A stretch of DNA of 61,042 bases, counting the filler, from Nemertoderma westbladi (Eukaryota > Animalia > Xenacoelomorpha), in the NCBI GenBank assembly GCA_032718475.1. It is 3 parts of 3 records of this genome, joined end to end, with 100 filler letters (N's around TTAATTAATTAA, not from the genome) between each part and the next. Parts side by side here need not be neighbours in the genome. Positions count along the whole stretch, not along the records: positions 1 to 19,771 come from JAUCBJ010004357.1; 2 more parts are not named here. One strand, 5' to 3'. Position numbers and translations under genes: made by a program. Of the stretch, positions 3,397 to 41,345 are shown in pieces. The notes under the pieces were generated by a model. It was not told the origin of the DNA. It made no database searches and saw only the letters and a program-made list of their open reading frames with translations. Each line of letters begins with the position of its first letter. Within the stretch, counting starts at the first letter, position 1.

Positions 3397-4009
3397 GTAA
3401 GTCGTTCTGTGGCCCAGTAGTGTTCTTTGGTACTAATAAGTTGTCGAGTTCAATCACACACTATTATATCCATAATATGTTGTTAGCCAATTGTTAATTA
3501 TCAACTGACCTTTGAATTAACACCAACTATATAAAAGCCAATCGTCAATTTACACGTCATTTTTGAATCGCAATAATTTTTATTGTCCGTTTAAATCCTT
3601 TTTTTGTCCTTTTTTTTTTATTTATTATGTCCTCCAAAAATCTAATGTTAGGTTCCATGCTACCGGTTTCTCTAATGCTGTTCTCTCAGGCTATCAGTAC
3701 CGGTATTAGTATATATAGCACTATTTTGCTGTATTGTATGTACAAATGTAGGTATAAAGCAGGTATTTCTGTATTTTAGTACCGGTACCGGCACCGGTAC
3801 TGCTATAGGCCTACTGTGTAGCCTACCATTTAAATACGGTAATGGTAGGCCTACCGGTTGTGCTAATAAATTTTAAATAATTGATAGGCCAAACTGGATT
3901 GCAGGATTGTGGAAAATGTGGATATACCTTTCACATAATTTAGGCCTATTACTGTATTAGTTTTATAATCAATAATGGATCATGACTACTGTCTGAGTAG
4001 TGTTACGGA

Positions 4010-4920
4010 TAACCTGCTCCTTTCCCTGATTTGGTAAATTGACTGTTTATTGTTTTGGATAGAAAATCCGGCCTTAACCTGCTCCTTTCCCTCAATTAGT
4101 TAAGTGATCGTTTATTGTTTTGGTTAGAAAATCCCGCCTCTGTAACCTGCTCCTTTCCCTCAATTGGTAATGTTATCGTTTATTGTTTTGGTTAGAAAAT
4201 CCCGCCTCTGTAACCTGCTCCTTTCTCTCAATTGGTAATGTTATTGTTTTGGTTAGAAAATCCCGTCTCTGTAACCTGCTCCTTTCCCTCAATTAGTTAA
4301 ATGATCGTTTATTGTTTTGGTTAGAAAATCCCGCCTCTGTAACCTGCCCCTTTCCCTCAATTAGTTAAATGATCGTTTATTGTTTTGGTTAGAAAATCCC
4401 GCCTCTGTAACCTGCTCCTTTCCCTGAATTGGTAAAGTGACCGTTTGTTGTTTTGGTTAGAAAGGCCTGCCTCTGTAACCTGCCCCTTTCCCTCAATTAG
4501 TTAAATGATCGTTTATTGTTTTGGTTAGAAAATCCCGCCTCTGTAACCTGCTCCTTTCCCTCAATTAGTTAAGTGATCGTTTATTGTTTTGGTTAGAAAA
4601 TTCCGCCTCTGTAACCTGCTCCTTTCCCTCAATTAGTTAAATGATCGTTTATTGTTTTGGTTAGAAAATCCCGCCTCTGTAACCTGCTCCTTTCCCTCAA
4701 TAAGTTACGTGATCGTTTATTGTTTTGATTAGAAAATCCCGCCTCTGTAACCTGCTCCTTTCCCTCAATTAGTTAAGTGATCGTTTATTGTTTTTGTTAG
4801 AAAATCCCGTCTCTGTAACCTGCTCCTTTCCCTGATTTGGTAAAGTGACTGTTTATTGTTTTGGTTAGAAAACTCGGCCTTAACCTGCTCCTTTCCATCA
4901 ATTGGTAATTGTTTTTGGCT
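4010..4920. repeat. Tandem satellite, 68-bp unit, about 13 copies
   Basis: Unit TAACCTGCTCCTTTCCCTCAATTAGTTAAATGATCGTTTATTGTTTTGGTTAGAAAATCCCGCCTCTG. Period 68 (e.g. 4271 to 4339). A lone relic monomer lies at about 59080-59130. Confidence 0.95.
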
Positions 4921-6400
4921 ATAAAATGAGTGTTTTGCTACGTCATGTGGTAATCGATTATCGACAACAACCACAAACTATTAAATATAGAGTCTTTTTA
5001 AAACAGGCGCATATGGAAATCTATCTCATATTCTATAAATCATGGAATCATGGAATGTTTTGGCACAGGCATAGTGAAATCAACTGTCTGACAGTCCAGA
5101 AATCATCAGTCTGACAGTTTGAAGAAATACATACATAAAAAGTCATTAAAAGGACAAAAAAAAGTCATTAAAAGGACAAAAAAAGTCATTATGCATAATT
5201 CGTAAAAAAAAATGACAAAAAAAGTCAAATAAAAGGACATAAAAAATCACTGCCTTTTTGAATTATAGTAGTTGTCGCATTTCAATCAATAATTGGTGAT
5301 GAATGAGTTTAATTAATATCAAACGTGAGTGGCAAAATAGCCTTTAACAAGAATATGGGAATTTCCGACGTGTTATTAAAAATTATAAAAATACGATCAA
5401 AATAAATGAACTCTGGCAGTCCTACTAAAAATAATATCTTTAACAGGAAAATCACTAAAACATTCCGTTTTCACTAAAACCAATTAATTATCATCAAATA
5501 CAGTAAGAGGAATGAACTGGTGAAAGTAGCAAGTTATACCTAACAAAACAATAATAATCGAAATTAAATAAAACAGGTTTCAATTTTGTTTTCAATGATA
5601 TAAATTTACATTTGAGTGATAATTAATTTATAATTATTTATAAATTAATGAGTGATAATTTTCAATGAATGAAGAATATATTATATTTTAGGGGTGACAA
5701 AAATTTAGTGAAAAAACATTTAATTTAGTGGAAAAACCATTTGTTTTAGAGAGCCAATGTAATTAATGCGAAACGAGTAAAATGTAAAATTTTTGTAAAA
5801 TGAGAGCATTCTTAATAAGATTTCCAAATTAATTGCGTACTCATTAATTTTAAAATGAATACTAAACCTTCATTATTAATTTATTTAAACTTCTTAAACT
5901 TTAATAAAAATATGGCAACATGGCAACTTGTTTTTATTTTTTTAATATTAATATTTATATGTGTAATAATAAAATGGCGTATAAAATTCCATTAATATTA
6001 TTTTCATAAGAATAAATTCATGCAATTTATTAGGTGTCGCTAGGTTACCAATTATACTGACCGGGCTAGAATTAAGTGAACTGTTAAAGGGTAGTCCCCG
6101 CCAAATGCGGTACTACAGCTGTACTACTTTACAGTTCTACCGGTACGATAGGCCTATTCAGAATACTGAATAAGGAATTAAAGAAATTATAAAGAGCATT
6201 ATCATATTGTTCTATTACATTATATATGGATGGAATTAGGAAATACAGAAATAATGCTGATGTGAAGTTTATTGAATTTGAGCAGTTTGCATTCATCTGT
6301 TCATTAGGTAGGCAGGCATGCCGTTGCCACATCAGTGATACTGACGTAACTGCACTTCTGATTACAGGATTAGTGCGAAAACTGAACAATAACCTAAATT

Positions 6401-7531
6401 ATGTCTGAAATTTATGTAAAAGATTTAATTCGTATTCTGATTGGTTGTTCCGAAATCTCTGCCGAAATCGCGAAAAAGATACGCGAAGATGAAACACTAC
6501 TTGAACTTTTAGTTGAGGAAAAAAAAGGCGACGCAAAGAACCCGCGATTTCGCCACGATTTCAAATCCCTCGCTGACGTTCTTATTCAAGAAGTGATTAA
6601 ATATCACGTCACGCGAAACATCTCCAGTCTATCCGATCGCATCTATGGCGAGGAATCGAACGTGTTCCGGAACCGCTCCGGTTCGTCTGTTGCTATAACG
6701 ATGGACGGCGACATCGGTGCGACTGCTTCTGCGCTCGCCTGCGTCCTCGACTGCGAAGTCTCGCTCGGGAATCGCCTCGCGGAGATCGCCTATTCCGAGC
6801 CGATTTGCGACGAATCGCAGGCCAACGAGGTTCACGCGAAGGCGGGAAATTCAAAAATCGATGCGAGTCGACTGGGAATCTGGATTGACCCAATTGATTC
6901 TACGAGTCAGTATATTCGTTCGAGGGACGATTCTGCTGATATCAGCGTCAGACTCGGTCTCACCTCAGTCACTATCCTTATTGGCGTCTTCAGTGTAGAC
7001 ACTGGCTATCCGGTATTGGGCGTAGTGAACCAACCATTCGCAAGCGAACCCCGTGTATTCTGGGGTTATAACGGCCCCGATCTCAAGATCAACAACGTTT
7101 CCAAGACAACAACCAATGAAAGAGCCGTAATATGTAGTTCGAGCGAGTTTGAGACTATTAGAGAGCGTCTGACCAACTGGGATGTTTCTCACTTCCCGGG
7201 CTGTGGGTACAAGGTTCTCTCTGTCATACGTGGTTCCGCGAGGTTCTTCCTATTAACCAAGGCTAGTTCCTTCTGCTGGGACACCTGCGCCGGTCACGCG
7301 ATCCTGCTGTCCCAGGGCGGGGGCGTCGTGAGTTTCGGCGACCTGGTGACGTCCCGTTCCAACGACCGGGACGAATTGGCATCTCAGTTGGAATCCCTGC
7401 AGGTTCGTTACTACGAGAAGAACCAATCTCTCTCGGGAATAAACCAATACTCCAACCAGAAAGGGATATTGGTTTACGCAGATTCGTCTGATGTGTTTAG
7501 TATTTATTCGTTACTGCGAGGTAATCTGTAA
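6401..7531 (+). CDS. INPP1: Inositol polyphosphate 1-phosphatase (IMPase/FIG family), single exon
   Basis: 376-aa ORF with DFKSLADVLIQ, IYGEESN, WIDPIDST, GVVNQPF, GCGYK and WDTCAGHAIL motifs. N-terminal LLVEEKKG...DFK is INPP1-like. Confidence 0.9.
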   Translation: MSEIYVKDLIRILIGCSEISAEIAKKIREDETLLELLVEEKKGDAKNPRFRHDFKSLADVLIQEVIKYHVTRNISSLSDRIYGEESNVFRNRSGSSVAITMDGDIGATASALACVLDCEVSLGNRLAEIAYSEPICDESQANEVHAKAGNSKIDASRLGIWIDPIDSTSQYIRSRDDSADISVRLGLTSVTILIGVFSVDTGYPVLGVVNQPFASEPRVFWGYNGPDLKINNVSKTTTNERAVICSSSEFETIRERLTNWDVSHFPGCGYKVLSVIRGSARFFLLTKASSFCWDTCAGHAILLSQGGGVVSFGDLVTSRSNDRDELASQLESLQVRYYEKNQSLSGINQYSNQKGILVYADSSDVFSIYSLLRGNL

Positions 7532-9463: not shown

Positions 9464-10038
9464 TGTGACGGGATCCACCGAGGATCCCGGTTTATCCGAT
9501 TTCTTAACTACGCGTCCCCGCCGTGTGCATGAAAAGAGTCCTGGTGTTATTAACTCTGGTTATTGTTGGTAACGTATGTATAATGTATATAGTATAAGCA
9601 CAGTTTATGGATTGCAGGATTGGATGAGTACCGGTAACGTACAAATGTGATATAATGGCAGTGGACGGAGACGGTGATAAGAGTCTCGGTACCACCCTAA
9701 CTAACTGACTAAAGCAAAGAGTGAATGAATGATACACTGACATGGTAATATATTGCACCGGTTGGCCGCATTACACTACTCAGCCGATGCCTTCCCCCCA
9801 TTGGCTAATAACTCACTTGTCACCCTCCCATTTCCCTGGGTGTGCTTCCCCCCCGCTGCTGTCTCTCTCTCCCTCCCGGAGGTATAACCTCTGACCCCCG
9901 CTGTGTGTGTTCCCTTGGGGCCTATTGTCCCTGCTTATTGGGGTGACACGAGGTTGATTGGTAACCAACCTCGTGCTCCCAATATTGCTTAAAACCAACT
10001 CTGTGTGGGCCTGGTTAGCGGAATTGAATACGCTAACA
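9464..10038 (-). repeat. 3' LTR of the BEL/Pao element (575 bp, TGT...ACA)
   Basis: Minus strand begins TGTTAGCGTATTCAATTCCGC directly after the PPT GGGGGGGAG and ends CCCGTCACA. Both ends are independently supported by the homologous LTR at 40106-40674. Confidence 0.8.
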
Positions 10039-10076
10039 CTCCCCCCCATGCTATCTTCCCGGTGAGAAGATAGCAT
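10039..10076 (-). promoter_or_regulatory. Polypurine tract preceded by an 11-bp perfect hairpin
   Basis: Plus strand CTCCCCCCC (10039-10047), then ATGCTATCTTC-ccggtga-GAAGATAGCAT (10048-10076). Confidence 0.8.
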
Positions 10077-10731: not shown

Positions 10732-13280
10732 TTAGTTCATTCCACCTGCCTTTGGGAACCACCTCAACTCTTTCCCTCTATCGTCCTCCTCCCTTGGTCG
10801 TTTCCTGGTCACTGCCGCTCCTTTGATCTTGTCTGCTTTCTGGCTTCGGACTCTCGCCGCCACCTCCTTACTGATCCCGGTCGTCGACTCCTTGGGTGCC
10901 GGTGTTATTAGCCCCCGGTATCGCTTCGCGGGTGGCCCCTCCGAGTGGCCCTGCTGTTTCCCCCTAGTGGCGTCCCATAGGATCATTTTCATCGCCCGCG
11001 GCACATGCTCCGCCAAGAAATCCCTGAACTCTCCTCTGTTCTGTGGCGTCCACCTGTCCAAATACCTCTGCGTATTTATCACCCCGGCATATGACGCCGC
11101 CGTCGCCACTTCCTGGTAGGTAAACGGAAGCCTCCGTTTGATAATCTCCATGTGGGCCTCCTGATTGATGTTAAAGAAGCCCCACCGGAACTCCTGGGCC
11201 TTCATACGTTGCCGAGTCATCGCCCCGACGTCGGCCCACTCCTCGAAGATCCTAAACTTCACTTTGTCGTCCATCCAGTCACACTGGCGTCCGTAATGTC
11301 CCCAAAAGTTACACTTCGAACATCGGTTATGCAACCGTGGACACGCCCCCATCCTGTGGCTCGACTCGCGGCAGTAGAGACAACTAGTCCCTTTCTGGAA
11401 CCGGTACAAACAGCTCCTTTCCTGATGGGTCTGTCTCCCACAGTAGTCACAGCCGAGCACCAATGTCTCCCGCCCCACGTTATCTTTCGTCCCAAGCGAT
11501 CTCCGCGGTCTGTGGAGTCGCTGGTAAGCGAACTTCCGGACGTTAGTGTCCCTGTCTACGTCGATCTCCTCGCCCCTCCTGGGTATCGTCTCCCCGAATA
11601 CTACCCGTGGTGCCGTCCCCGGTTGCTCGCCCAACCTAATGGTGCTCCCCGCGAAATCCATCGCCGGCTCCTCGTGCACCCAGGCCCGCTTGCCAGGTCT
11701 ATCCCAGAAGGCCCTCGCCCCACTGGCCGTCACCACCCTCCCGCCAACCCAGTCCGTGTCTGAGTGGCCGATCCTCCCGATGGGCGGCATCTCTCCGAAC
11801 TCGTCGTCGTCCTCGTCCTCCTCTGGCAGTGGCTCCAACGCCGGTATCCCAGTGGACCCACTATGTCCCTTCCCGCCTTGGCTCTCGCCCGTAGCTTTCC
11901 ATCCTTCTAGCTCCCCTAGCCTCCTTAGCGGCTGATCGCCCTCGGCGCCCGCTGGTATGGGCATCGTCTGCAATCCCGACGTCGACTGTTGCGGTGATCC
12001 CACCGTCCATCCTAATTCTCGCCCTGAACTCCCCGATGAGGTCCAACGAAGTTCGTCTAAGGCCGCCTGTTCCTCGAAGCCATAGCTCTGTGCCCTAGCT
12101 TCCTCCTCCCTTTCCTCTGCTTCTCTCCTCTCCTGTCTAGCGACTTCTTCCAATCGCTTCGCCTCTCGTCTATCCATCTCTAGCTGCTCCCACCTCTGAT
12201 ACGGCGTATCTACCTCCCCGTCTACCAGATGTCGGCTGTTGTAGTACACAGACTCGCCCTTCAGCCCCGGGTGGTCTACCAGACCCTCGAAAGCCATCTT
12301 AAAGGCTCTTCTGTAGCTTAGGGGTGATCCCGATAATAGGAATACCATTGGTTCCCTCTCGATAACCACGGTCATGAATAGGTTAAGCAAACCCATCATT
12401 ATCCAGTCCTCCTGTAGGATATATCGCTTCTGATATACCTTTATCGCTCCTCTCCGGAATTGATACACCTCTTGTCTCCCTGGCCTCGCTCCCCACTTCA
12501 GCGAGTTCGCCAAGTCCGCTCCGTACTCCCCTCTGAACTTACTCCAGTCCATCGGTTTGTGACACACGAGCCCCATTAGCTGGTCCATCGCCACTGCCCC
12601 GCAATGTCCTGTGTTCTCCACTAGTCCCAACCCGTCTGGTGCTGTCATAGCCATATAGACCGTCTGTGTATCCAGAAGGTTGGGGGTGTCCGGACCGATG
12701 ATTCTCTCCGCGTCGTCGCGAATCGCCGATCCCACTTTCGTTGTCGACTTCTCTCTCACTAGGGTTTGCACCGCCTTCAGCAACCGGTTCAACTTCGGCC
12801 CGTCCTTCTTTCCATACGTTCCTAGATCGAATAGGAATATATCCCCATTTGGCGCGGCCGGAGTATGGTTCTGGCCGACCCCGCCGATCCTCTCCTCGAA
12901 CCCTCCTCGTCTTCTACATTTCCTTCGTCGTCTAGGATCATGTATCCTCCCCTGCTGACGGACTCTACGAACCTCTTCCAATCTTTCCTCGGTGGCTCTC
13001 TCGCGTACTTCGGAATCCCGAACTTCGCCTCGTCTCCCTTCACCACGTAGTGGAAATGCTCGAAGATCGCATTGTCCAGCGACGGCGTCCCGTAGGTCCC
13101 GACCAGCCGCTGTTCGTGCACCTCCCTGAAATGGTCCTGTAGTGCTCGCGCTGCGTGACCTCTCTCTAACCGCTCGTAGTATCCCATCGTCTTCTCTTCC
13201 GGATGCCTCTTGGTGAAATCCACTAGTATTTCTTTTCCTCCTGACTCCGCCTTTCTCTTCCTGATCAGTTTCCCCGCCAT
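10732..13280 (-). CDS. Retrotransposon accessory ORF (about 850 aa, one 1-nt frameshift near 12860): DnaQ/DEDDy-like 3'-5' exonuclease plus 3 CCHC zinc knuckles
   Basis: ORFs 12822-13376 and 10732-12981 join if one base is added. ExoI-like YMILDDEG (12921-12944), then APNGDIFLFDL, ExoII-like KVGSAIRDDA, NLLDTQTVY, WGARP and ExoIII-like QKRYILQED. C-terminal CDYCGRQTHQERSC, CLYCRESSHRMGAC, CSKCNFWGHYGRQC. First ATG at 13280. Confidence 0.75.
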
Positions 13281-13777
13281 TCCGAACTCTTTCACTCGCT
13301 CACCTGTAAGGTGGTGCCTTGCCAAGGCGCAGTACAGATGAGTGATAAAGTTAAGATGGTCTGTACAGTTCGACAATGGCCTATTTCCTACTTAATTTCG
13401 AGTTATAGCCTAAATTTTACTACTTTGTTTCTGAAACTGTCAAATTGTACCCTAAATTACAATTTTGTCTGTTACTTTAATTATGTTCCAGAATTTACTT
13501 TCTACTGTTACCATAATTTGTTAATTTTCTAGCCCTATTCTATTTTTATTTTAATTTAATTCAATCCTACTACTGTGCTACTACTTACTATTGCCAATGG
13601 ATTATTCTACTTCATATTCCACATTCTGACCTACTCTGTGGGCTTGTGCAGTACAACAGTATGCGTCGTGTGGCCTACACGATTTATCCAGCTGTACTCA
13701 TATGCCCCCCTCTCGCTACTCACTACTAACTAATACCTACATTATACATACCCTTCTACCACTAACTCTTACTATCC

Positions 13778-14400
13778 GGTACTACGTACCCTCTTACTAA
13801 CTTCTAACTAACTTCTACCAACCGGTACTATGTACCCTCTTACTAACTCTAACTCCACTAACTAACTAACCGGTACTACGTACCCTCTTACTAACTCTAA
13901 CTCCGCTAATTAACTAACCGGTACTACGTACCCTCTTACTAACTCTACCTCCGCTAACTAACTAACCGGTACTACGTACCCTCTTACTAACTCTAACTCC
14001 GCTAACTAACTAACCGGTACTATGTACCCTCGTACTAACTCTAACTCCACTAACTAACTAACCGGTACTACGTACCCGCTTACTAACTCTAACTCCACTA
14101 ACTAACTAACCGGTACTACGTACCCTCTTACTAACTCTAACTCTCTCCAACTAATTAACCGGTACTACGTACCCTCTTACTAACTCTAACTCTCTTCAAC
14201 TAACTAACGGTACTACGTACCCTCTAACTACCTCTAACTCTCTTCAACTAACTAATGGTACTACGTACCCTCTTACTAACTCTAACTCTCTTCAACCAAC
14301 TAACTGTACTACGTACCCTCTAACTACTTAGCTAACTAACGGTACTACGTACCCTCTGACTACTAACTCCTACTAACTAACGGTACTACGTACCCTCTAA
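13778..14400. repeat. Internal tandem array of the BEL element, 14 units of about 48 bp with a GGTAC-TAY-GTACC hairpin
   Basis: Unit ACCGGTACTACGTACCCTCTTACTAACTCTAACTCCACTAACTAACTA. Core motif at 13778, 13824, 13872, 13920, 13968, 14016, 14064, 14112, 14161, 14209, 14257, 14305 (first G changed), 14341 and 14382. Confidence 0.95.
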
Positions 14401-14563
14401 CTACCTACTCTTACTATCTGCCTAACTCTTACTAACTTCCATCTGCCTACTTACTCTTCCTTTATTTATTATTTTTTATATTTTATTTTATTTGTGGGAA
14501 GGGCGTCTCGCCCTCAATCCCACCCCCCTCAGTCCAAAACTTGGACGACTAAACTCTTTACAA

Positions 14564-17500
14564 CTATGGTGCTCCCTCTAATAGGCAGCACTTGCCTACA
14601 GCCCTTCTATAGGTCTTTCTATCTTTCACTCCTATCTTCCCACCTATCCGCACTTCTACCGAATGGACTCTTCCGTCCTCGTCAGAGTAGGTGCCCACAA
14701 CTCTCGCCAATCGCCATTGGTTGTTGATGATGGTATCGTCCGTGACGATCACCAGATCACCCTCCTTTAGCTCTATGTTCGTGTTCCTCCACTTGCTTCT
14801 CCTATGGAGCGTGGGTAGGTATTCCTCGACCCACCTCCTCCAGTACTCTGCGCTTATTGCTTTAGCGACTTTCCAACTCTGTCGGGAGTGTATATCGTCT
14901 GGGTCTACACCCCGCATGTCGATGGTCACTGGCCTCTCCATTAAAAAGTGACTGGGCGTCAGCACATCTAATGACTCCGGGTCATCATTTTCTGGGTATA
15001 GCGGTCTGTTATTAATGATACCCTCGCACTTTGCTAGTACCATCCTTAGTACGTCCTCGGTAACCATGTGGATGTTCATCAACTTCGTCATCAGACGCTT
15101 GGAACTACCACTAGTCTCTCGACGCATCCTAGAGTATGCGGAGCATACGGCGTCCTCCTCTCCCACTTCACCTGTCGTCTTCTCATGGCTGCCCTGACTT
15201 CTTCCCCTTCCAGGATATCCAAGGCATCCGCCATCTCGTTCTCCGCCCCCACAAAGTTGGTTCCGCTGTCAGAATATATTACTGCAATCGTCCCACCTTT
15301 GCGGTCTCTGAACCTTTCTAGAGCATTAATGAATGCTGATGCGGTTGCATCTTGGGTGAGTTCTATCCCTACCGCCCGTGTGTTGTTACATACGAAGATG
15401 ATGCCGTAGCGCTTCTCCGTGTGCCGCGTCACCTTAATCTTTATCGGCCCGAACATATCCACACCGCAATGCGTAAATGGCGGGTCGTGCTGTCTCACTC
15501 TACTGGCCGGTAGTGGCGCCATCTCCTGTATAGCTCGTTCCTTCTTAGCTCGTCGGCAGGTCTGGCACTGCCCCACTACCGCCTTTACCTTCTTTCTCAA
15601 CTGTTTGACCCAAAAGGTCCTTCGTATCTCTGTGAGGGTCCGGTTGGTGCCCCCGTGCAATATCGACTTATGGGAGTCCCAGATGATCTGATGGACTATC
15701 GGTGATCCATTGGGGATGATGATGGGCTTTGGTGGGATGACAATACTGTTGTTGTTCAACACCCTAGAGTTCATTACTAGGATCCCGTCATCATTGAGTT
15801 GTGGTGACAGTGTGATCAGTTCGCTGTCCCGTCGGAGATGCTGTTGTTTACCGACGCGTTCTACTTCGTCGCCGTAATTCTTCCTCTGTTCGTAACGGAT
15901 GACGGCTTTGGCCGCCCCCTCCAGATCGACGGATATTTTACCCTTTGTATCTCTACCGATTCCCCTAAGGAAGTCCCCGAAGGCTCTCCAGTACGCTACT
16001 AACTTCTTGGTCTTATACCAACTAGAGCTGTAGCTAAGGAGTTTGTCCGTTGGGTTATCGCACAGTTCTTCCGGTTTCGGTTGCACGTCCCTTATCTCCC
16101 TCACCATCTGGCTGTATATCTCCTCACCTTCTGAATCTACTCCCTCCTCTTCTAATGCTACTTGTTCTGCGCCCGGGTCCACCTTTCTCATCGGCGGCCA
16201 GGCTGTCCTGTCGTTCAGAAATTGCGGTCCATGCTGCCACAATACTTCCTTCTTCAAGAAAGTGTGGCGTGCCACGCCCCTCGATAACAAGTCCGCTGGG
16301 TTCTCGTCCGTTGGGCAGTAGTGCCACCTTCCTAACTCCGTAATTGCCCTTATTTCGTCCACCCTATTTGCGACGAATATAGGGTATCTCGTCCTTTCAT
16401 TGTGTAGCCAACCGAGCACTACCATGGAATCCGTCCAGTAGTATGTTTCCACTATGTTGGGAATAGCGTCCACTAAGTAGGCTGTGGCCCTAACTCCTAA
16501 TCTCGCAGCTGTCAACTCGAGTTTCGGAACTGATGCTGAATCTGGTGGCGTCGACTTCGCTTTACTGAATGCGAGTCTGGGCTTGTGAGCCCCCTCTCCT
16601 GTACTATGTAGAGTGCCGCTCCGTATGCCTCTAATGATGCATCGGAGAACATGTGCAGATCCAGATTCGTCATGTCCCCATCCGGGAAATATACACGTGG
16701 CATGCTGTATGTTCCCATCTGCTCTAAACTCTCTGTCCACTTGCTCCATTGCTTGCTAATCTCTTCCGGGACCTCCGTGTCCCATTCGTCCTTTAATTTG
16801 TATACTCTCTTGAGTATCTGTTTCCCCGTGATTAGTAATGGGGATGCTAGGCCTAGGGGATCGTATATCCTCGCTATATACGACACATAGCCCCTCTTTG
16901 TGTGGATACCTGCGCCCTCCTGACTCAACTGGTATTTCAACTCGTCTGTCTCTCGGTTCCACACGATTCCTAGTGCCTTCTGCTGGGACTCCACTCTCTT
17001 GTTCGCCATGTCCTGTCCCTTGGCTGTCGTGGGATTATCCATGGTCGACTCTGGCCTCCTGTCCTCTATGGCTTTCATGAATTCTTGCGAGCTGGATTGG
17101 AACTTGGTTAGGTTGAACCCGGATCCTTTTAGGATGTCGCGAACCTCACGCCCCGTGTCCAGTAGTTCCTTAACCGTATTTCCAGACTCCATCCTGTTGT
17201 CTACATAGAAACCTCGTTGAATCATATCGACGGCTTTGGCGCTGAACTTATTCTCCTTCCCTTCTACCGTGTCTCTTACGGCCATAGTCGTTGTAAACGA
17301 AGACGACTTGGCTCCCATATTCTGTACTATCATCTTATACATTGGTATGGTCGACGGTTCCTCATCGCCGTCGTACCATAGGAAGCGCTGGCTATCGCTA
17401 TCCTCTTCCATTACACGGACTTGGTTGATCATGCCTTCGATGTCGCAGGTGAAAGCGTGTTTACCATTCCTGAATCTGAGTAGGACCTCGATCCCTGAGT

Positions 17501-19771
17501 TGTAGATGTTGGGACCCTCCAGCAGATAATCGTTTAGGCATTTTCCGTTGGTCTTGGCCGATGCGTCAACTACCATCCGCAGTTTACCTTTCTTCGGGTC
17601 TAGAGCCACGTGGAGTGGCAGGTAATAGGTCCTGTCCGTGTTTGGTTCATCCACCGGTAACTCCACGGCCCATCCTTTCTCGACATACTTTCTAATTGTC
17701 TTGTGAATGTACTCATTCTTCTCGGGGCTCTGTTTTAGCGTCTGCTTCAACTTACGAAGCCTCGTGAGTACCATCCCTTTGTTGTCGGGTAACGGTAGCT
17801 TCGGTAGCTTCCATACCATTCCTATGGTATACCGCCCCTCATCGCATGTCATCGATTCCTTTACACTTTGTAGAGCCTGCTTGTCTTCTACCGAGGTTCC
17901 GACCCCGGTCTCCTTTAATCCCTCAAAATCCTGCCTGAGCAGTCTCCTGAGCTGCTCCTCCGCTCCCTCATCTCCCATTTCTCGCATAGTTCCCCCGCCC
18001 TGATGTCTCCGACATCCTAAATGGTATCTTACTCCTGATTGGGCCACTCAGCGTCCACCCGAATGGTGTTAATATCGCCACCGGGTCACACTGTCTGTCT
18101 TCGCCGAAGACCGTTTGCATTCTCTCGTGGGCCGTCGGGCAGTCCATTCCTACTATGATGGATACCTTCCTGACGTCCACCTCTGGGATTGAGAAGTCGA
18201 TACTGTCCAGGAATCTATATTGTTCGACCTCGATGTTGGTTGGCCGCCTGGCGTTAATATTTTTCGACTCTATCACCTGGATGGGGTCGATGGTCGCCCC
18301 ATAGTCGCATCCCGGTGCTATCGCTGCTATCGCGCACCGTCCGGTCCTCATCTCCAGAACCTCATCTTTGCTGGAGATGGTTGTTACCGCCATTCTACTT
18401 GGCCTCGTTCTCAATCCTATCTCTTCGGCCACCCAATCCTCTACTAAGGTGAAGGCTGCACCACTGTCGACCAGCATCAGCGTGGTTACTGATCGATTGC
18501 CTTCCCCGATTATCCTTACTGGTACTACCCCTAATAGTACCGTTCCTCTCTTCCTTGCCACTACGGTGCTCGTTGCCATTGTCTGTCCTTTACTCTGACC
18601 GAACTTAATTGGCGTTTCTTTGCATTGGTTGGCTCTATGTCCACTCATCACACATCGCGGGCAGATTTCATTTCTTCTCACGTATTCTACCTCATCTTCC
18701 CTGGGTAGCGCTTGCCAATACCTGCAGTTCATGGTCTGATGAAGCGCATTTGTATGTAGTTGGCATTTGCTCTTTGGGTTGTAGCCATCCTTATAAAGTG
18801 CGTTGCATATCGCACTTATATTTGTACCAAAGTCCCTACTATTCTTATTGTTTGGGTTCGGCCTACTGGGCGTGCTGGGGTTATGTTTATTCGTGTTGTT
18901 ATTTTTCCCCTGTCCGCTCCATGATGTGGTCTTACCCCGGCTACTTGTGGACTGGTAGTCCCCTGCGTTGCTGCGTACGGCAGCGACTGTCTGAGCTTTG
19001 GCAATGCGTTTGACGCGTTATGCTCTGGTTTCGGCCTGTGATAATCGGTCCTTCATCCCTTTCCCAGGCTATCCTCGCTGTAGACTGGGTCCGTTATAAG
19101 TTCAGCTTCATAGTTTAAGAAGCTTGACATCTCTTCTAAACCCGGTTCCGCACCCTTCCTATCTCGAGTGGAGAAAGCGATTTTTCTCCACTTATTGCGC
19201 AGCCACATCGGTAGAGCCTGGGCTATCGTAGTGATGTTGTTGGATGCGTTGAGTTCGTATGGCGCGCCCAGCGTCTTTAGCACAATTAGCGCCTTCTCGA
19301 CTTTGTTAGCGAATGTCTTTATGCTAACGGGGTTATCCTGTAGGCCACCCGATGTTATACCTCTCAGGGTCTGCCGGATGATCTTGGCCGGGTGCCCGTA
19401 TTCCCTGTCTAACGCCCGCCATGCCGTCGTGAAGCCACCCTCAATGCCCTGGTATTGCCTCACGATGTCGTATGCTGGGCCCCCTGTATATACTTGCAGA
19501 TACTTTAGGCACTCCGCCTGCGTCAAGTTCTTTGTTAATATTTCGTTACTATACATGCGCCGAAACTGGAGGTATTCTTCCGGCCTACTTCCATCGAATT
19601 TGAATGGTTCCACGGGTGGTAACTCGATCCTGGTCTTTAGTGCATCGATTAACGTGGCCATCCCCATCGCTTGCGCTTCCAATGGGTTCGATGGGTGCTG
19701 TATAGGTTATCCCATTGGGTGCGGTCCGTTCATCCTGTCTGCCGCTTTCCTCTGACTTGGATATATCATAG
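14564..19771 (-). CDS. BEL/Pao gag-pol polyprotein, split by small frameshifts
   Basis: Gag PPVEPFKFDG; zinc knuckle CPRCVMSGHRANQC; protease LVDSGA; RT YYLPLH, RMVVDAS, CDIEGM, FYVDN; Pao-type YDPLG; RNase H MFSDAS, KLELTAA, WTDS, NPADLLSRG; integrase H..ILH..CQTC, GVDMFGP, SDSGTNF, GCVER; C-terminal LTPSHFL...W...YLPTL. Confidence 0.93.
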
Positions 19772-19871
19772 NNNNNNNNNNNNNNNNNNNNNNNNNNNNN
19801 NNNNNNNNNNNNNNNTTAATTAATTAANNNNNNNNNNNNNNNNNNNNNNNNNNNNNNNNNNNNNNNNNNNN
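19772..19871. other. Assembly spacer with artificial TTAATTAATTAA all-frame stop linker
   Basis: 44 N + TTAATTAATTAA + 44 N; the same construct appears at 46611-46710. Confidence 0.95.
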
Positions 19872-25708: not shown

Positions 25709-28036
25709 GAACAAGTTCTACAGTAGTGTGGGAAGGGAAGGGAAGGGAAAAAACTTGTAGGGTGGGTCTGGAAGTGGAATGGGAACAAGTTCTACAGTAG
25801 TGTGGGAAGGGAAGGAAAAAAACTTGTAGGGTGGGACCGGAAGTGGAATGGGTACAAGTTCTAGTGTGGGAAGGGAAGAAAAAAAAACTTTGTAGGGTGG
25901 GACCGGAAGTGGAATGGGAACAAGTTCTAGTGTGGGAAGGGAAGGAAAAAACTTTTAGGGTGGGACCGGAAGTGGAATGGGAACAAGTTCTAGTGTGGGA
26001 AGGGAATTAAAAAACTTTTAGGGTGGGACTGGAAGTGGAATGGGAACAAGTTCTAGTGTGGGAAGGGAAGGAAAAAAACTTTGTAGGGTGGGACTGGAAG
26101 TGGAATGGGAACAAGTTCTAGTGTGGGAAGGGAACATCAAGTGCTGGCTTGTAAATGAATTAAGTTCTAGTGTGGGAAGGGAAGGAAAAAAACTTGTAGG
26201 GTAGGACTAGAAGTGGAATGGGAACAAGTTCTAGTGTGGGAAGGGAAGGAAAAAAACTTGTAGGGTGGGACTGGAATGGGAACAAGTTCTAGTGTGGGAA
26301 GGGAACATCAAGTGCTGGCTTGTAAATGAATTAAGTTCTAGTGTGGGAAGGGAAGGAAAAAAACTTGTAGGGTGGGACTGGAAGTGGAATGGGAACAAGT
26401 TCTAGTGTGGGGAGGGAACATCAAGTGCTGGCTTGTAAATGAATTAAGTTTTAGTGTGGGAAGGGAAGGAAAAAAACTTGTAGGATGAGACTGGAAGTGG
26501 AATGGGAACAAGTTCTAGTGTGGGAAGGGAAGGAAAAAAACTTTGTAGGGTGGGACTGGAAGTGGAATGGGAACAAGTTCTAGTGTGGGAAGGGAACATC
26601 AAGTGCTTGCTTGTAAATGAATTAAGTTCTAGTGTGGGAAGGGAAGGAAAAAAACTTGTAGGGTGGGACTGGAAGTGGAATGGGAACAAGTTCTAGTGTG
26701 GGAAGGGAACATCAAGTGCTTGCTTGTAAATGAATTAAGTTCTAGTGTGGGAAGGGAAGGAAAAAAACTTGTAGGGTGGGACTGGAAGTGGAATGGGAAC
26801 AAGTTCTAGTGTGGGAAGGGAAGGAAAAAAAACTTGTAAGAAGGGACTGGAAGTGGAATGGGAACAAGTTCTAGTGTGGGAAGGGAAGGAAAAAAACTTT
26901 TAGGGTGGGACTGGAAGTGGAATGGGAACAAGTTCTAGTGTGGGAAGGGAACATCAAGTGCTGGCTTGTAAATGAATTAAGTTATAGTGTGGGAAGGGAA
27001 GGAAAAAAACTTGTAGGGTGGGACTAGAAGTGGAATGGGAACAAGTTCTCAGTAGTGTGGGAAGGGAAGGAAAAAAAACTTGCAGGATGGGACTGGAAGT
27101 GGAATGGGAACAAGTTCTAGTGTGGGAAGGGAAGGAAAAAAACTTGTAGGGTGGGACTGGAAGTGGAATGGAAACAAGTTGTAGTGTGGGAAGGGAACAT
27201 CAAGTGCTGGCTTGTAAATGAATTAAGTTCTAGTGTTGGAAGGGAAGGAAAAAAACTTGTAGGGTGGGACTAGAAGTGGAATGGGAACAAGTTCTACAGT
27301 AGTGTGGGAAGGGAAGGAAAAAAAACTTGTAGGATGGTACTGGAAGTGGAATGGGAACAAGTTCTAGTGTGGGAAGGGAAGGAAAAAAACTTGTAGGGTG
27401 GGACTGGAAGTGGAATGGGAACAAGTTCTAGTGTGGGAAGGGAAGGAAAAAAACTTGTAGGGTGGGACTGGAAGTGGAATGGGAACAAGTTCTAGTGTGG
27501 GAAGGGAAGGAAAAAAACTTGTAGGGTGGGACTGGAAGTGGAATGGGAACAAGTTCTAGTGTGGGAAGGGAACATCAAGTGCTGGCTTGTAAATGAATTA
27601 AGTTCTAGTGTGGGAAGGGAAGGAAAAAAACTTGTAGGGTGGGACTGGAAGTGGAATGGGAACAAGTTCTAGTGTGGGAAGGGAAGGAAAAAAACTTGTA
27701 GGGTGGGACTGGAAGTGGAATGGGAACAAGTTCTAGTGTGGGAAGGGAACATCAAGTGCAGGCTTGTAAATGAATTAAGTTCTAGTGTGGGAAGGGAAGG
27801 AAAAAAACTTGTAGGGTGGGACTGGAAGTGGAATGGGAACAAGTTCTAGTGTGGGAAGGGAAGGAAAAAAACTTGTAGGGTGGGACTGGAAGTGGAATGG
27901 GAACAAGTTCTAGTGTGGGAAGGGAACATCAAGTGCTGGCTTGTAAATGAATTAAGTTCTAGTGTGGGACTGTGGAGGGAACCACTTGTAGTGTGGGACT
28001 GGAAGTGGAATGGGAATAACTTCTAGTGTGGGACTG
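25709..28036. repeat. G-rich composite satellite: 64-bp A units interspersed with 49-bp B units
   Basis: Shared head AAGTTCTAGTGTGGGAAGGGAA, followed by GGAAAAAAACTTGTAGGGTGGGACTGGAAGTGGAATGGGAAC (A) or CATCAAGTGCTGGCTTGTAAATGAATT (B). Confidence 0.95.
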
Positions 28037-28347
28037 TGCAATATCTAGGACGAAATTTTTATCATTTTAGTGATACCTGTACTTGTTAAAAAATTTATTT
28101 TGAAAATTGTAGCTGATTTCTTAGATACGTTCCCGAATTATCGCCGCGGGGGAGTCGGGACAACTAATATCCCAAATGAATACTAGTCGCCTGCCTGCTA
28201 AAGGTAGGCATAAATAAAAATTGACATTTTCGTTCTAACAACATTAATAAAATTATTTCCAATTGTATTTTCCACCGCATTAGTAACACAAAAGAACTAG
28301 TAAGCCTAAATACGTAAACGTAGTCGTAATGGTAGGTACACTAAAGT

Positions 28348-29223
28348 CTACGGGTTACCACCACCGGTAGTCGAAGGCCTCGCCCACTCCACGTTTAGGA
28401 TTAAATGATCATATCCGAACCCAGAAACCTTCTCAATGGCCTTGGCTGCATCCTCCCGACGAATAAAGTTTATGTAAGCGAATCCGCGACTCTGTTGGGT
28501 CGAACGATCCTTAGCTAGAAACACTCGTTGAATAGTTCCGAAAGGCCGGAACAAATCCTGCAGATCGGACTCACGGACGTCCTCCGAGATGTTGGACACC
28601 CGGATGGTTGCGAATTCATCGCGGCGTTGCATCGAATCTCCGGTAGTCCGACGTCCCGCCCCCTCGCCGCGTAGACTCGGCGGCACGTACTTGTCGCTAG
28701 TGGGACCCCGAGCCGAGCCTCGTGAGTCATCTACACCCTGTCGCTCATCCAGGGATTCCATCGCGTCTTTATACGGACACTTTACCGACCAATGGTCACC
28801 TTTACAGTAGCGACATTGTTGGATCTTCTGGGCGTGGAGTTTCTTTGCGACGTCCTCTTCGGGTTGCGAAACGATCTCCTCTGTTGCTGATAGGAACTGC
28901 ATGGTTACGACCTCACCGACCACCGTTGTCGAGGCCGCCGGACCCGGTTTATCTCCCTTGGAGTCCCCGAACTTCTTCCATCGGCGTCGCGACGCCACCG
29001 TCTTTGGGACACGTTTCCTCTCGATCTTGTAAGTTCGCACGACCTTCTCCACCTTCCCCTCGTCGTTGCGACGGAATTGCGTGACCGTTTTAACGTCTCC
29101 TTTTATCTCTTCGCGCGACGGAGGAAGTTTTTCAGAATATTTACCGACCGCTTCCTCTGCGTCCTCAACTTGGTCAGCCCAACTGCTCTGAACCGGCGTT
29201 TCGCTTGTCTCAACTCCTGGCAT
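28348..29223 (-). CDS. EIF3G: Eukaryotic translation initiation factor 3 subunit G, single exon
   Basis: SWADQVE N-terminus, RRRWKKFG, zinc knuckle CRYCKGDHWSVKCPY, KYVPPSLR, C-terminal RRM (TIRVSNISE...RGFAYINF...GYDHLILNVEWA). First ATG (MPG...) at 29223. Confidence 0.96.
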   Translation of the reverse strand: MPGVETSETPVQSSWADQVEDAEEAVGKYSEKLPPSREEIKGDVKTVTQFRRNDEGKVEKVVRTYKIERKRVPKTVASRRRWKKFGDSKGDKPGPAASTTVVGEVVTMQFLSATEEIVSQPEEDVAKKLHAQKIQQCRYCKGDHWSVKCPYKDAMESLDERQGVDDSRGSARGPTSDKYVPPSLRGEGAGRRTTGDSMQRRDEFATIRVSNISEDVRESDLQDLFRPFGTIQRVFLAKDRSTQQSRGFAYINFIRREDAAKAIEKVSGFGYDHLILNVEWARPSTTGGGNP

Positions 29224-29558
29224 TGTGTACAAGTACGATACGCAGTACGTTCAGACTGTCAGACGTTTGCTGAGACTGCAATTTGCAGAGTATTGCAGTA
29301 TTGACACTGTCAGAGTCAGTAGACCTGGGGCTGTCAGGCTGGCTGGGCTGGCCCCTATCTCCTGGCCTATAATTGCTGAACTATCAACAGATAAAGGCCT
29401 ATCCCTGTATCCCGTACAGCTGTATCCCAAGTATCTCAGTATCTGAGTACTGCAGTACTGGAGTACAGGAGTATCGAGATATCGTATCACAGTATCCAGG
29501 TATCAGTATACTGGTATAGGTACCGGTAGGCCTTTAAAGTTGAAGTTGAAGTTTTTAT

Positions 29559-30615
29559 GGGTAAATCTTTTCGACCTACGCGTAGGCCTACGCGTAGCTA
29601 CGCGTAGGCCTACGCGTAGCTACGCGTAGGCCTACCTACTACGTAGGTGCTACAGTACGTATAACTACGCGTACAGTAGGTGCTACCCATAACTATGCCT
29701 ATACGTCCTTTATCATTAGTAGGCCTACGTATTCCAAGTGGTTCAGTACTAAAATAAGATAATACGGTATGTTCAATAAACAACCCACAACCTTCAAATG
29801 CTTTCAACAGTAATGCATCCTATACCTGTATACTCTACATAGAGGAATACGCTAAGTCTACATATTCTTCACTTCATGCGTTGCGGGTGCTAAAATGTGT
29901 TACCGGTAATAATGTTTAGAGTTCAAAAATAGTTTACAAAGGAAATAGGCCGATGGTTCTTATCGATTCTCTATGCTTATAATTGCCTTTGTTCATGATA
30001 GGGCAAGGATATATTTAATATGTTAACCCCTTGACAAGGGAAGGGGGAGACTAAATTGTCTACCATGATTGGTTGCACTTCTTGTTATTTGACCAAACAA
30101 TTGAATTATACAGTATGCAGTATTTATCAGCTTTCGCTTAACCACTTCAGCGGTAGATTGTTAGCTTACTACTGTAGAATATTTAAATAATCCAATGGAA
30201 ACAAAGATACTTGAATCATGAGACGTGAATTTTAAGTCTACTTTTTATTCATCCTGTGTTTGTATGTGAAAGAGCCGAATATTATTTATTACCAGTGCTG
30301 TATGTAGAGATATGAGTTTCCGATTCTGTTATTCCATTTGTCTGATAATCAGATACCTGACATATACCGATACTTGCCTAACAACTCAACCCTACCGGAC
30401 CTGAAATGAAAAATCATTGTTATCAGGACTGCTACGCGTAGCACCTACGCGTAGTTCCAAAATAACTACGCGTAGTTTTAAAACACCTACGCGTAGTTGT
30501 TAAAAAGACAGTAAGTCTGGCCCTACCGGTAAATGACAGGAATGGAAGTTACAAACTACGCGTACCTACGCGTAGCTACGCGTAGGCCTACGCGTAGGTC
30601 GAAAAGATTTACCTG
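29559..30615. mobile_element. Non-autonomous DNA transposon (MITE, probably hAT) with palindromic CTACGCGTAG subterminal repeats
   Basis: About 50-bp inverted termini GGTAAATCTTTTCGACCTACGCGTAGG... / ...CCTACGCGTAGGTCGAAAAGATTTACC(TG). Flanks GTTTTTAT / TTTTTTAT suggest an 8-bp TSD. Confidence 0.8.
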
Positions 30616-32013: not shown

Positions 32014-35000
32014 TGTAAGCCGGCACACACGGGTCTAAACACGATTGTCCAGATTCTCAATTTTGCTAAGTTATAGAGACACACCTGGGTTCGGTGTCAA
32101 TAATAAGTTTCGGTTCGACGTATCAGCGATATTATTAATCATAAGCTCAGCAATGCAAATAAAGCAAATAGATCAAATCATAATATTTAATAATATGTAT
32201 AATGTGAGTATTTATATTACAATCTATAATACGATTTTAATATTTATAATATTACAATGTAATAATTCCAGTCAATAAAGCTTGACTGGGTCTTACAATG
32301 ACCATAGCTTAGCATTGAATACAAACTAAATATATGATGAAGGTGTCTGTTCACTAATTGCCGTTTATATACGGAAAGCCCAAAGAGGCAACTTACGGCA
32401 TCCAGCATCACCGTGTGGTTTAAAGAGGCACCTGCTACTACAGAACGAATGTGAGCACAATGACGCTAGGTGGCGTCTCAATTAACTAAATAAGGCCAGG
32501 GTGTAGCTTTTACTAGAAATTCATTATTAACCAGTAACACAGAATAAATCCATTCTTAAATTAATTAACTAAACAGAATGTGGGCTTTAAATCTAGATAA
32601 TTCAAAATAAGTAAATTAAAACTGCAGAGAACAGCACCGCTTCCATTCATTTAACCCGGATGTTCGCACGTAATGAACATTAACAAGCTCGGATACAGAG
32701 AGCAGTAGTTGATAGTCTGGAATGTTGGAACGTTGCACTTCAATTTGATGTAAGTCCGCCGATCTATCCCATAACCTTATACAGTATATTTAATAAGCGA
32801 TGTCTCGTTGTCACTTTGGGTGGTGCCGAAGGGGCAAGAAGTAGAATGTAGATGTCACTTTAATAGGCACTTATAGCACTGTTAAGAGAAACTGAAGGCG
32901 ATTGAAGAAAGTATGGTTGGTAATTAGTTCCTTCTTAATTAGTTCCAGCTCAGCCAGGGGAAGCAATGATCCCATTGTCGGCATAGTCGCGAAGGGGCTC
33001 AGCAATAGGATTCCAATATCGGAGCAACAGCAATGAGGTTTGTGATGTTGATGCCAGTGTGAAATGGGTTAGGTTACGTCCGAATGTAGATGACACCGAA
33101 ATGCGTAACAGACAGGGACAGGTGAACGTGTACCTTCGTTTTGGAACCCTTCCATAAGAGTTTGGTCCGCAGAGCGGATTAGATCAGAGAAGATGAATAG
33201 GCTCTTCATTTAATTGTTCCTATTCTCGTCGTCTTGCAGGATAGAAAGCGGATCGATTGTGTGGAGAGCCATCAAGTGGGAAAAGGGGGGCAGGTGAGTG
33301 TCACCCACCGACACGTACCGGGTTCCATTTCCCCATCAATCCCCTGCTGCAAGCCAAGAATTCTGCAACTAGGCCTACCAGCAGTAATTATAAACTATCG
33401 TGGCTGAATGCAGAATCTGGCGACCCGTTGAGACGGGGAATGGTCTGGAACCATAGTTGGTCAGCTATAGTCTTTGCATCAAAGACAGTTTGGACAATTG
33501 CATATACTCATTCATTTAACCACACAATTAATTCCACACAATTTAGTCTATTTAAATATGAATTATTGGTTCCCTTTTGATAATCGGTCTAAGTACTGTT
33601 CAAAAGACTTATCTAATACCTACCATGATATCACTAATTTATATTTATAAGAACAATGTTAGGCTGATCAACTATAAACCACAATGTACATAGTGAGGTT
33701 TACAATTAAACAAACATTGTTTGTGTTTCCAAGGAGACGCGTAATTTTATTTCCTTTACTAATTTTGTTCCAAAATTAGTTCAGCGACATATTGGTAGAT
33801 GTAGAAATTAGATCACTCGGCACTCACACTTATTTCACACTTATTTCACACTTAGTAACTACTGTAATAGTTATTTGATTGGTTATGACGATATTTAATT
33901 TGGTTGGTTTAAATTGGTTATTACTAATTTGTAATTTAATAAATTGATTATTAATCGATATTTTTGAAAACGTTTCGCATATTTCTAAGCCCATAACGAC
34001 ACACAAATCCGCTTCCACGATTGAGTAATGTTGTTAGCAATTAGTCATTTAGCAATTAGTTCCCTTGCTATTTCTAGTAAATAAAGGCGGCCGATTTTCG
34101 ATTGAAATAGTGTACAGTACCTTGGGTTTGGGTTTAGCTCTCCAAATAGCTAAATCGACTAAACGAACTAGATCGTCATTTCACATAAAAACTACAGTTA
34201 TACGGCCTGTTTCCCAGTTGTTTCTAGGTTGGTCTTGATCCTCTAGCAGTACTATGTCACCAATAGATATATTTTCCTTTTTTGAGAACCATTTAGTTCT
34301 AAGTTGGATCAAAGGTAAATAATATCTTTCAAGGTGTGTAGCGAATTGCCGAGATAGTAGCTGCATCATCTGCTATGTAAGTCTCAATAGTTCATCGCCA
34401 TCCTGGTGTTTGGAAATGGGTAGCATGAGCAGGGGTTTTCTCAATATGAAATGCACTGGTGTAAGGGGTTCCAAGGCTTGTGGATCAGACAAAATGGGGA
34501 GAAGAGGTCAATCGTTTAAGTATAGCTTGATATCTCCTCTAATAGAGTTTGAAGTTATTCGTCGGTTAAATAAGCCTTGCATGGGATGATGTGATGGAAT
34601 GCCACCTTAGTGCTACCTATTAATCATTCCCAACTTCCACCCCACCAGGATGCATCAGCGGTGTTGAAGGTCCACATAGATGCTGATACTTTGAGGTGCT
34701 CGTCGAGTTGGTATTTGTTCCACAGTCGTTGATAAATTTAGAAATCTCGTTGTTGGAACCCACGAAGTTGGTACCCTGGTCAGATCTCATAGTCCGACTG
34801 GTTCCGAATGTGGCGATCAGTCTCCGAAGACAGATAATAAAGCTGTTCATTGACATATCATTGGCCATATCGAGGTAGACAGCTTGGAAAGTCATACAAA
34901 GAAAGATCACGGACCACCTCTTTACTACAGAACGAGCGCGTTTGACTTCAAAGGGTCCGAAGAGATCCACGCCGGTATGGGTAAATGGTGGGTGATAGTA

Positions 35001-40068: not shown

Positions 40069-40674
40069 ATGCTATCTTATCACTGGGAAGATAGCATGGA
40101 GGGAGTGTTAGCCTATCCATTCCGCTCTACATTCCAACCACAAATGTAGGGAGCCAATTTAAGAATATTGGACACAGAGAAATACAGAGCCAGTAGGTGG
40201 GCCCACTCACCTTATAGCCACAGGGAAAGCCAGGGTATACTAACCAAGGGATGATGCAATTGGGCCAGCTGATGGGTGAGTTGGACCAACGGGAGGGTGA
40301 CATGTGGCGTGTATCAGCCAGAGGCCAATGAAATATGTTAGCCTATTATAAGCAGTATATTTTCCCCATATATATTACCGGTCAATCATTGTGCAGCCAG
40401 TTGGCATTCATTCCATATAATGCAGAGGTGAAATTGTTTTTCCACTGCTTTGCTTTGCTGCACTACATTACATTGTGCTACCAGTACTACAGTAGTCAGT
40501 CACTCAGTATATATTAATGTCGATTAATAACAGAAAAGTTCAGCGATAAACTCTTATGTTCAACAGGCCCATAGCCAAGTCAACCACCCAGTCAGTAGCC
40601 AGCGCGAGCGCGTAGGGAACAACCACCATCAAGTCAACCAGTTGGGATCTCTCGCTAACCGAGATTTCGTCACA
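40069..40674 (+). mobile_element. 3' end (hairpin, PPT, 569-bp LTR at 40106-40674) of a relative of the 9464-19771 element
   Basis: ATGCTATCTT..AAGATAGCATGGAGGGAG-TGTTAGCCTATCCATTCCGC ... CGTCACA mirrors the minus-strand sequence at 10076-9464. Confidence 0.8.
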
Positions 40675-41345
40675 ATCCTATTCCACTTCAAACTACGAGC
40701 CAGCAACAGAAGAGGAAACGTATTTAATGTATTTAAAGTATTTAAAATCTTTTCCATATCTTGATTCGTTGTCAAAACATATGTTATACAGTAGTCTATT
40801 ATGAGAATGCTCTCCATAGCGAAAAATATTTGTCATGGGGGACTATGGACCTTAGTGTTTTAGATTGTTACTGAAATTACCTAGTACGCATCAGGGGGCG
40901 CTTTTCTGCTACAGGATTAAATGAGTCGAAGTCCCGCTTACAGAGCATTCGTCTTGGACACTAAATGAAATGAAGATTTACAGTCCAGTTAGTGAATAAT
41001 CACCAAAAATTTTATAGTGCCAATTTTGATAGACTATCCTTAAAAGTTTACACATTTTTTTCTCAAAATATACATAATTTTTTACAACCATTTACTTTCA
41101 GAACAAAAAATATTAATGTTACCCAAATAGGCCTACATGTCATACATATACAGGACTGTATATTATATATGTCTGAAATGTCCATACAATGTATGTCTCA
41201 TTATATTTTATTTCTGTATTCACTACTTCACTACTATGATCACGCTGCTGTATAGCAGCTGCGCATTGACATTGGTATGCCAGCTTAACAAAAACATTTT
41301 GTCACCACCACCATATAATATGCACGGTATACGAAAGAACGGTAT

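Follow-up and report, generated by a model that had tools for sequence, protein, structure and literature searches.

Extra genes of LTR retrotransposons and related exonucleases

For animal LTR retrotransposons, gag and pol are generally regarded as sufficient, and where an extra gene is present it is usually env. In the soybean element SIRE1, an env-like gene is expressed by suppression of a stop codon. Among BEL/Pao elements, third ORFs described in the accessible text of two papers include the F-like env of Drosophila roo and a Chuviridae-like glycoprotein in mosquito elements (PMC13524379, PMC3118150). DEDDy ORF3s have been reported from bdelloid rotifers, where they are carried by the Juno and Vesta LTR elements and by Athena/Terminon (Rodriguez et al. 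2017, PMC5408684), a report that recurs in the accessible parts of PMC6431247 and PMC6338049. Outside mobile elements, the Trypanosoma brucei RNase D (TbRND; PDB 7c42 and 7c45) combines a DEDDy exonuclease with C-terminal CCHC knuckles, and the accessible text describes a zinc-finger domain that strongly raises RNA binding and cleavage (PMC7797062). The same fold and ExoI–III layout are found in the animal proteins EXD2, Nibbler/Mut-7, WRN, Egalitarian and EXD1.

The gene described here was found in a window of 61,042 nucleotides, the whole stretch of DNA that was analysed, from Nemertoderma westbladi (GenBank assembly GCA_032718475.1). It is predicted to encode a DEDDy 3′–5′ exonuclease fold and three zinc knuckles. 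The Juno and Vesta ORF3s, as described in the accessible text of the rotifer paper, resemble it in being RNase D-like DEDDy ORFs that follow pol, occupy the env position and lack membrane segments, but Juno and Vesta are not BEL/Pao elements and have a pol with dUTPase; the comparison made here is with the published description. In the same text all five mentions of 'knuckle' refer to gag or pol, and the motif is given as DEED. The three knuckles, a further conserved domain, a clade with a dead active site and single-stop fusions to pol set the BEL/Pao gene apart from the described rotifer ORF3s. It shares the position between integrase and 3′ LTR with the third ORFs of roo and the mosquito elements, but those encode membrane fusogens whereas this gene encodes a predicted nuclease fold with no membrane segment. 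TbRND has a similar layout, which may be convergent, but it is a cellular enzyme that trims guide RNAs and, in the accessible text, has four zinc-finger motifs (PMC7797062), and none of the animal proteins listed above is element-borne.

A literature search at the level of listings of openly available papers found no BEL/Pao exonuclease gene, and the word 'exonuclease' was absent from the accessible text of the BEL/Pao-relevant papers PMC3118150, PMC6238403, PMC8556966 and PMC13524379. An earlier database entry without a label is possible. The first-pass annotation had named no described BEL/Pao lineage with this cargo, and this search added none, but among LTR elements in general a DEDDy ORF3 has been known since 2017 (PMC5408684, accessible text). 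The accessory-gene family of BEL/Pao elements is real and apparently undescribed, and is of a kind known from the rotifer elements.

The extra gene and its BEL/Pao carrier

The carrier element lies on the minus strand. A gag piece containing DUF1759 lies at 19056–19706, and the 5′ end of the element, including the 5′ LTR, is lost in an assembly gap (19772–19871). The end of gag, the protease, RT, RNase H (Peptidase_A17) and integrase (H2C2, rve, DUF5641) follow in four ORFs (14564–19017), and the whole of gag-pol (19706–14564) is broken into five ORFs in this copy. Pfam searches found DUF1759, an aspartyl protease, Peptidase_A17, Integrase_H2C2, rve and DUF5641 upstream of the extra gene. The order gag-PR-RT-RNase H-IN with the BEL-specific DUF1759, Peptidase_A17 and DUF5641 is that of BEL/Pao elements, as is a polypurine tract (PPT) followed by a TG…CA LTR. 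Pol ends at TAG-TTG (14566–14564), and an AT-rich spacer of 1.28 kb (13281–14563) with an internal 48-bp tandem array at about 13745–14430 leads to the extra gene. From the stop of that gene, about 650 nt of untranslated DNA extend to a segment (10039–10076) made up of a hairpin (10076–10048) and the PPT (10047–10039), which is followed by the 3′ LTR (9464–10038; 575 nt, TGT…ACA).

The whole element was covered in four DNA runs from three studies, and contigs of the unique flank join it at about 9492. In run X1, summed contig depth, which is not equivalent to copy count, was 12,000–60,000 for the extra gene and 27,000–90,000 for gag-pol, with about 30 for a unique flank contig. The two repeated parts have depths of the same order, and these values show that the family is highly repeated and that the gene travels with pol. 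The window element is a decayed, high-copy BEL/Pao LTR retrotransposon.

As had been claimed in the first-pass annotation, a same-strand ORF lies between integrase and the PPT/3′ LTR, at 13280–10732. It occupies two frames that meet near 12860, where the addition of one base had been said to fuse them into some 850 aa; the joint length is 848 codons. Since gag-pol is itself broken four times, this single break fits ordinary decay or an assembly error. The first frame (piece A, 12860–13280) begins with Met at 13280 and contains a basic patch (KLIRKRK, 13271–13251) and the N-terminal part of the exonuclease with the ExoI D-x-E (YMILDDEG, 12944–12921). The exonuclease part of the second frame (piece B, 12300–12860) carries AAPNGDIFLFDL (12858), ExoII in KVGSAIRDDA (12738), NLLDTQTVY with DTQ (12681), KWGARP (12498) and QKRYILQED (12432), with ExoIII as Y-x3-E. 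Beyond these lie a charged helix and an acidic low-complexity linker (11452–12299), unconserved among relatives, and then the three CCHC knuckles (11281–11451), each C-x2-C-x4-H-x4-C (at 11451, 11382 and 11322). The last segment (10732–11280) consists of a conserved unnamed domain (F-E-x2-A-x2-G-x2-T…W-G-F-F) and a basic tail, with the patches PPAKRYR (10935) and RKRPR (10806) and the stop at 10732. Every motif and all three knuckles that had been listed were present, on the minus strand and in the order given. Of the DEDDy residues, D, E, D and Y are in place, with ExoIII as Y-x3-E rather than Y-x3-D. KWGARP probably does not represent the motif that immediately precedes ExoIII, because the conserved Trp of the family aligns with VYQF. 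The catalytic columns of the window copy are D-E-D-Y-E, a set shared with three relatives, and the copy is no more than 24% identical to any relative.

Hydropathy scans of the window protein and its relatives found no env-like signal peptide or membrane anchor, in agreement with the earlier claim; the highest 19-residue hydropathy was 1.48 in the window protein, and only one of 32 relatives reached 1.9 or more. Fold searches found no fusogen fold. An env gene was ruled out by these scans and searches.

The identification as an exonuclease was to have been checked by Pfam, where neither window piece matched any family. The gathering score of PF01612 was reached by none of the two window pieces, the 43 proteins described below and their 43 aligned domains; the best score was 23.3 bits against a gathering score of 23.6, and one relative (P0026) matched PF01612 at E=6e-5, just short of the curated cut-off. 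The exonuclease part of piece B had no match among PDB sequences, and the window pieces matched none of 988 candidates in a word-indexed protein search and nothing in the Atlas. In that protein search a family profile returned its own first row alone. The family is invisible to Pfam and is missed by annotation pipelines.

A full phmmer scan returned 43 proteins at E≤0.001, almost all via the knuckle region and including one TPR protein (P0018) that is unrelated. In the long relatives, D-x-E, KVGS-x3-D, DTQ and Y-x3-D occur in an N-terminal domain distinct from the knuckles. A profile built from 15 relatives and piece B matched human EXD2 at E=2.4e-9, as well as Egalitarian, WRN (weakly) and T. 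brucei RNase D, and a further family profile matched EXD2 at E=2.3e-11. A profile of 65 relatives that did not include the window sequence matched piece B at E=1e-13 (profile positions 82–249), and piece A was its second match in the window (positions 2–74, E=0.1, weak alone), such that the two pieces are collinear across the break on a DEDDy exonuclease profile. A chance motif match was ruled out by this profile.

The evidence for the fold comes from a relative, P0028, a protein without genomic context that is linked to the window by profile. In its AlphaFold model the exonuclease domain was mostly confident (pLDDT 64–97 by blocks), and Foldseek matched it to EXD2, Egalitarian, Rrp6, Nibbler and WRN. 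A wide structural search placed Nibbler (Z 16.3, rmsd 3.1, 201 aligned), WRN (15.6) and Rrp6 (15.3) highest, scores that are to be read as ties, and the structural alignments had 14–23% identity to animal homologues. Thus the DnaQ fold anticipated earlier was matched by the model of P0028, whereas a single-sequence model of the window's own protein (pLDDT 35) was unusable. EXD2 is the closest protein by sequence profile, with Nibbler, WRN and Rrp6 tied by structure. TbRND was matched by profile, by fold and by Atlas features (Atlas score 0.89, a lead only). Viral contigs gave no match to the family, and a viral fold library returned giant-virus and phage 3′–5′ exonucleases at 11–19% identity, none of them close.

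Other features were seen elsewhere in the window. A second BEL-type 3′ end at 40036–40674 (plus strand) has the same hairpin and PPT and a TGTTAGC…TCACA LTR of 569 nt, the interior of which barely aligns with the LTR of the main element; the hairpin ahead of the PPT, common to both 3′ ends, looks like a conserved cis element. Further retroelement remains, at 34620–36420 (minus), 41319–42314 (plus), 43031–46609 (minus) and 52944–53846 (minus), comprise a second BEL/Pao element, a pair of LINE-like RTs and a Gypsy-like pol whose long open frame is interrupted by a gap. Intron-free ORFs encode an inositol phosphatase (6398–7531, plus), eIF3g (28348–29250, minus) and nibrin (54488–56599, minus). 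Large tandem arrays occupy 3976–5016, 25729–28064 and 46655–50543, with units of 68, 64/113 and 32–33 nt, and inverted pairs of 262 nt (2372–2633 and 52894–53155) and 49 nt (within 29560–30613) are also present.

Relatives, selection and expression

Relatives were sought in metagenome contigs with a degenerate pattern for knuckles 2–3, which gave at least 120 loci of an estimated 300 or so. The loci were gathered by a knuckle pattern, and so the universality of knuckles among them is built in. The family profile matched 117 of the 120 listed loci. An exonuclease was present in 52 of the 57 listed loci with at least 1.7 kb of upstream flank. The five others were L072, a bacterial chance match, L036, in which exonuclease motifs are visible by eye, its close relative L076, and L048 and L060, which are BEL elements with the knuckle module in which an exonuclease was undetected. 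In the last two (L048:3341–6529 and L060:6880–9648) the third ORF differs in its N-terminal region, which is acidic, and its C-terminal part is long and helical. Exonuclease and knuckles share a single ORF in 41 of the 50 listed loci with a well-covered exonuclease. The third ORFs of L005, L015, L044 and L052, at 1300–1600 codons, have long extensions N-terminal to the exonuclease, and that of L005 had no Pfam match.

Flanks were obtained for 80 of the at least 120 listed loci and screened for BEL pol. The end of a BEL integrase was found upstream on the same strand in 36 of the 50 listed loci, at a median distance of 562 nt. The first-pass annotation had proposed testing whether all copies lie between a BEL integrase and an LTR; the integrase was upstream in 30 of the 33 listed loci with at least 1.5 kb of upstream sequence (exceptions L005, L008 and L033). 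Polyproteins of three relatives were identified as BEL/Pao by Pfam. In L024, pol and the extra gene lie between paired LTRs (797 nt, 95%), and the element also has a TGG site that resembles a PBS. A short element in L022 (5187–10931), bounded by LTR-like repeats, has the extra gene and the end of an integrase but lacks RT, and is possibly a deletion derivative that kept the extra gene.

Selection was examined in disjoint pairs of 55–99.5% identity by a simple counting method. All 11 exonuclease pairs had a dN/dS of 0.03–0.54 (median 0.15). In the knuckle domain, a set biased by the search pattern, 25 of 31 pairs gave 0.02–0.39 and the other six were saturated. The extra gene is kept by purifying selection in relatives, and the exonuclease pairs bear out selection rather than neutral decay, a point that the first-pass annotation had singled out.

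Among 66 aligned exonucleases, four acidic positions were kept in 30 (of 57 fully aligned), three in two and fewer in 25, with nine incomplete; the exact D-E-D-Y-D set was found in 22 of the 66. The sequences without the ExoI acids grouped together as a single clade both in the RT tree (99/98, 11 rows) and in the exonuclease tree (SH-aLRT 99, 15 rows), from the latter of which 15 partial or near-duplicate rows had been left out. Four pairs inside this clade had a dN/dS of 0.03–0.45, and as the dead clade is still under selection the fold outlives catalysis. EXD1 and Maelstrom are examples of the same, according to the accessible text of the rotifer paper (PMC5408684).

The exonuclease diverges fast, with a median of 18% identity among relatives, and the RT and exonuclease trees have matching clades. 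Compared with 47 other BEL proteins, a subsample of 120 matches, 18 carriers fell in one RT clade (SH-aLRT 97), while the window RT was weakly outside it on a long branch. A single origin of the extra gene was not rejected (AU p=0.088), and the trees are compatible with an old capture followed by losses as well as with a module swap. In 21 of the 22 loci that have both domains, GC3 of the exonuclease exceeded that of RT, which may reflect selection on expression. The exonuclease has low synonymous divergence compared with RT, which its higher GC3 probably explains, rather than a hidden overlapping gene.

In nine of 36 relatives (L007, L021, L030, L032, L035, L066, L069, L070 and L077) a single stop, always TGA, separates pol from an extra gene in the same frame. 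Three of them have CGG after the TGA and two have CAA-TTA; CAA-TTT, CGC, CTC and GGG each occur once. Spacers in these loci are 351–720 nt long and vary in sequence while the frame stays open, compared with five open frames of 72 controls. Single-stop fusions were found at 8 of 13 TGA-C stops versus 1 of 23 others (Fisher p=3e-4, an overstated value as the loci are related and seven of the nine belong to the dead clade). The readthrough signals described in the accessible text of PMC2754532 include CGG following UGA and CAA-UYA following a stop, and most of the nine stops have a context of readthrough type. RNA structure downstream of TGA-C stops was inconsistent (z +0.1 to −3.9).

Neither the remaining 27 relatives nor the window copy has a fusion of this single-stop type, so packaging cannot be generalised to the whole family. 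In the window, pol ends in TAG-TTG and the spacer is closed, which means that the gene there would need a separate mRNA. There appear to be two expression routes across the family, a readthrough fusion and a separate gene. The former recalls SIRE1, whose third gene is also reached through a single leaky pol stop, but SIRE1 is a plant Copia element with an env-like cargo, and readthrough in BEL/Pao elements is inferred from sequence and absent in the window copy.

Possible roles of the extra-gene protein

Taken jointly, the anatomy and position of the gene, the family, its selection and the clade without ExoI acids can be stated with high confidence. The function is put forward more tentatively. 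The reading that we prefer, at somewhat under even probability, is that the protein acts on the element's own RNA by trimming or shielding it. The knuckles and the conserved domain after them would hold RNA, in the manner of the knuckles in T. brucei RNase D, and would present its 3′ end to the exonuclease pocket. With the acids intact, as in the window (D-E-D-Y-E), the pocket might trim the end, and with the acids lost it might only bind or shield it. In one sub-lineage, readthrough of the pol stop would make the protein a C-terminal extension of integrase and could thereby bring it into the particle. We hold the probability at this level as fusion to integrase is the sole positional clue.

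The protein may instead counter silencing, by over-trimming or sequestering host piRNA or siRNA precursors, with the dead form a decoy for partners of Nibbler, EXD1 or Mut-7; we consider this unlikely, though it fares best among the alternatives. It would account for Nibbler as the top structural match, albeit tied with WRN and Rrp6, and for the matches to EXD1 and Egalitarian, and it suits an exonuclease that diverges fast yet is constrained between close pairs. The element family is very abundant in the host, and the gene is separate in most elements. Basic motifs occur in 27 of the 32 intact relatives, where shuffled sequences would give 17.4; this modest enrichment hints weakly at nuclear localisation. 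However, the best sequence match is EXD2, which to our knowledge is not a small-RNA factor. In the accessible text of the rotifer study, moreover, small-RNA coverage is found on every ORF type and the DEDDy ORFs bring no clear copy-number benefit (PMC5408684). The fuller claim, that a deep and widespread BEL/Pao lineage encodes a Nibbler/EXD-like small-RNA trimmer that sabotages host piRNA silencing, with a repeated dead pseudo-enzyme and delivery with the particle by readthrough, is more doubtful again.

An RNA transport adaptor like Egalitarian, carrying element RNA to the germ line with the fold used for binding alone, is improbable. Egalitarian was the second exonuclease-domain match by family profile, its structures include complexes with localisation signals, among them that of the I-factor, and the clade without ExoI acids is conserved; against this, all four acidic positions are retained in 30 of the 57 fully aligned sequences, and no motor-adaptor domain was recognised in the family. 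We give similarly low weight to an enzyme acting on the DNA side, proofreading or trimming cDNA ahead of integration. The fold is common to WRN, EXD2 and the exonucleases of family-A polymerases, and readthrough would join the exonuclease to integrase, but the knuckle arrangement is like that of the RNA-acting TbRND and the metal ligands are absent from a clade under selection. The loss of the ExoI acids from that whole clade disfavours the proofreading of cDNA that had been suggested at first.

That the gene is a hitch-hiking captured host gene, or a nested insertion that does nothing for the element, as the broken window copy might suggest, is very improbable and largely refuted by the same position in 36 other elements, the lack of terminal repeats of its own, the low dN/dS, the matching RT and exonuclease clades and a read depth of the same order as pol.

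The role in trimming or shielding element RNA thus remains our preferred reading. Dozens of highly divergent BEL/Pao elements retain this accessory gene, which exists in active-site, dead-site and nuclease-less versions. These provide a natural series of intact proteins for addressing the question, dating from the report of the rotifer ORFs, of whether RNA-processing or anti-piRNA factors are encoded by transposons.
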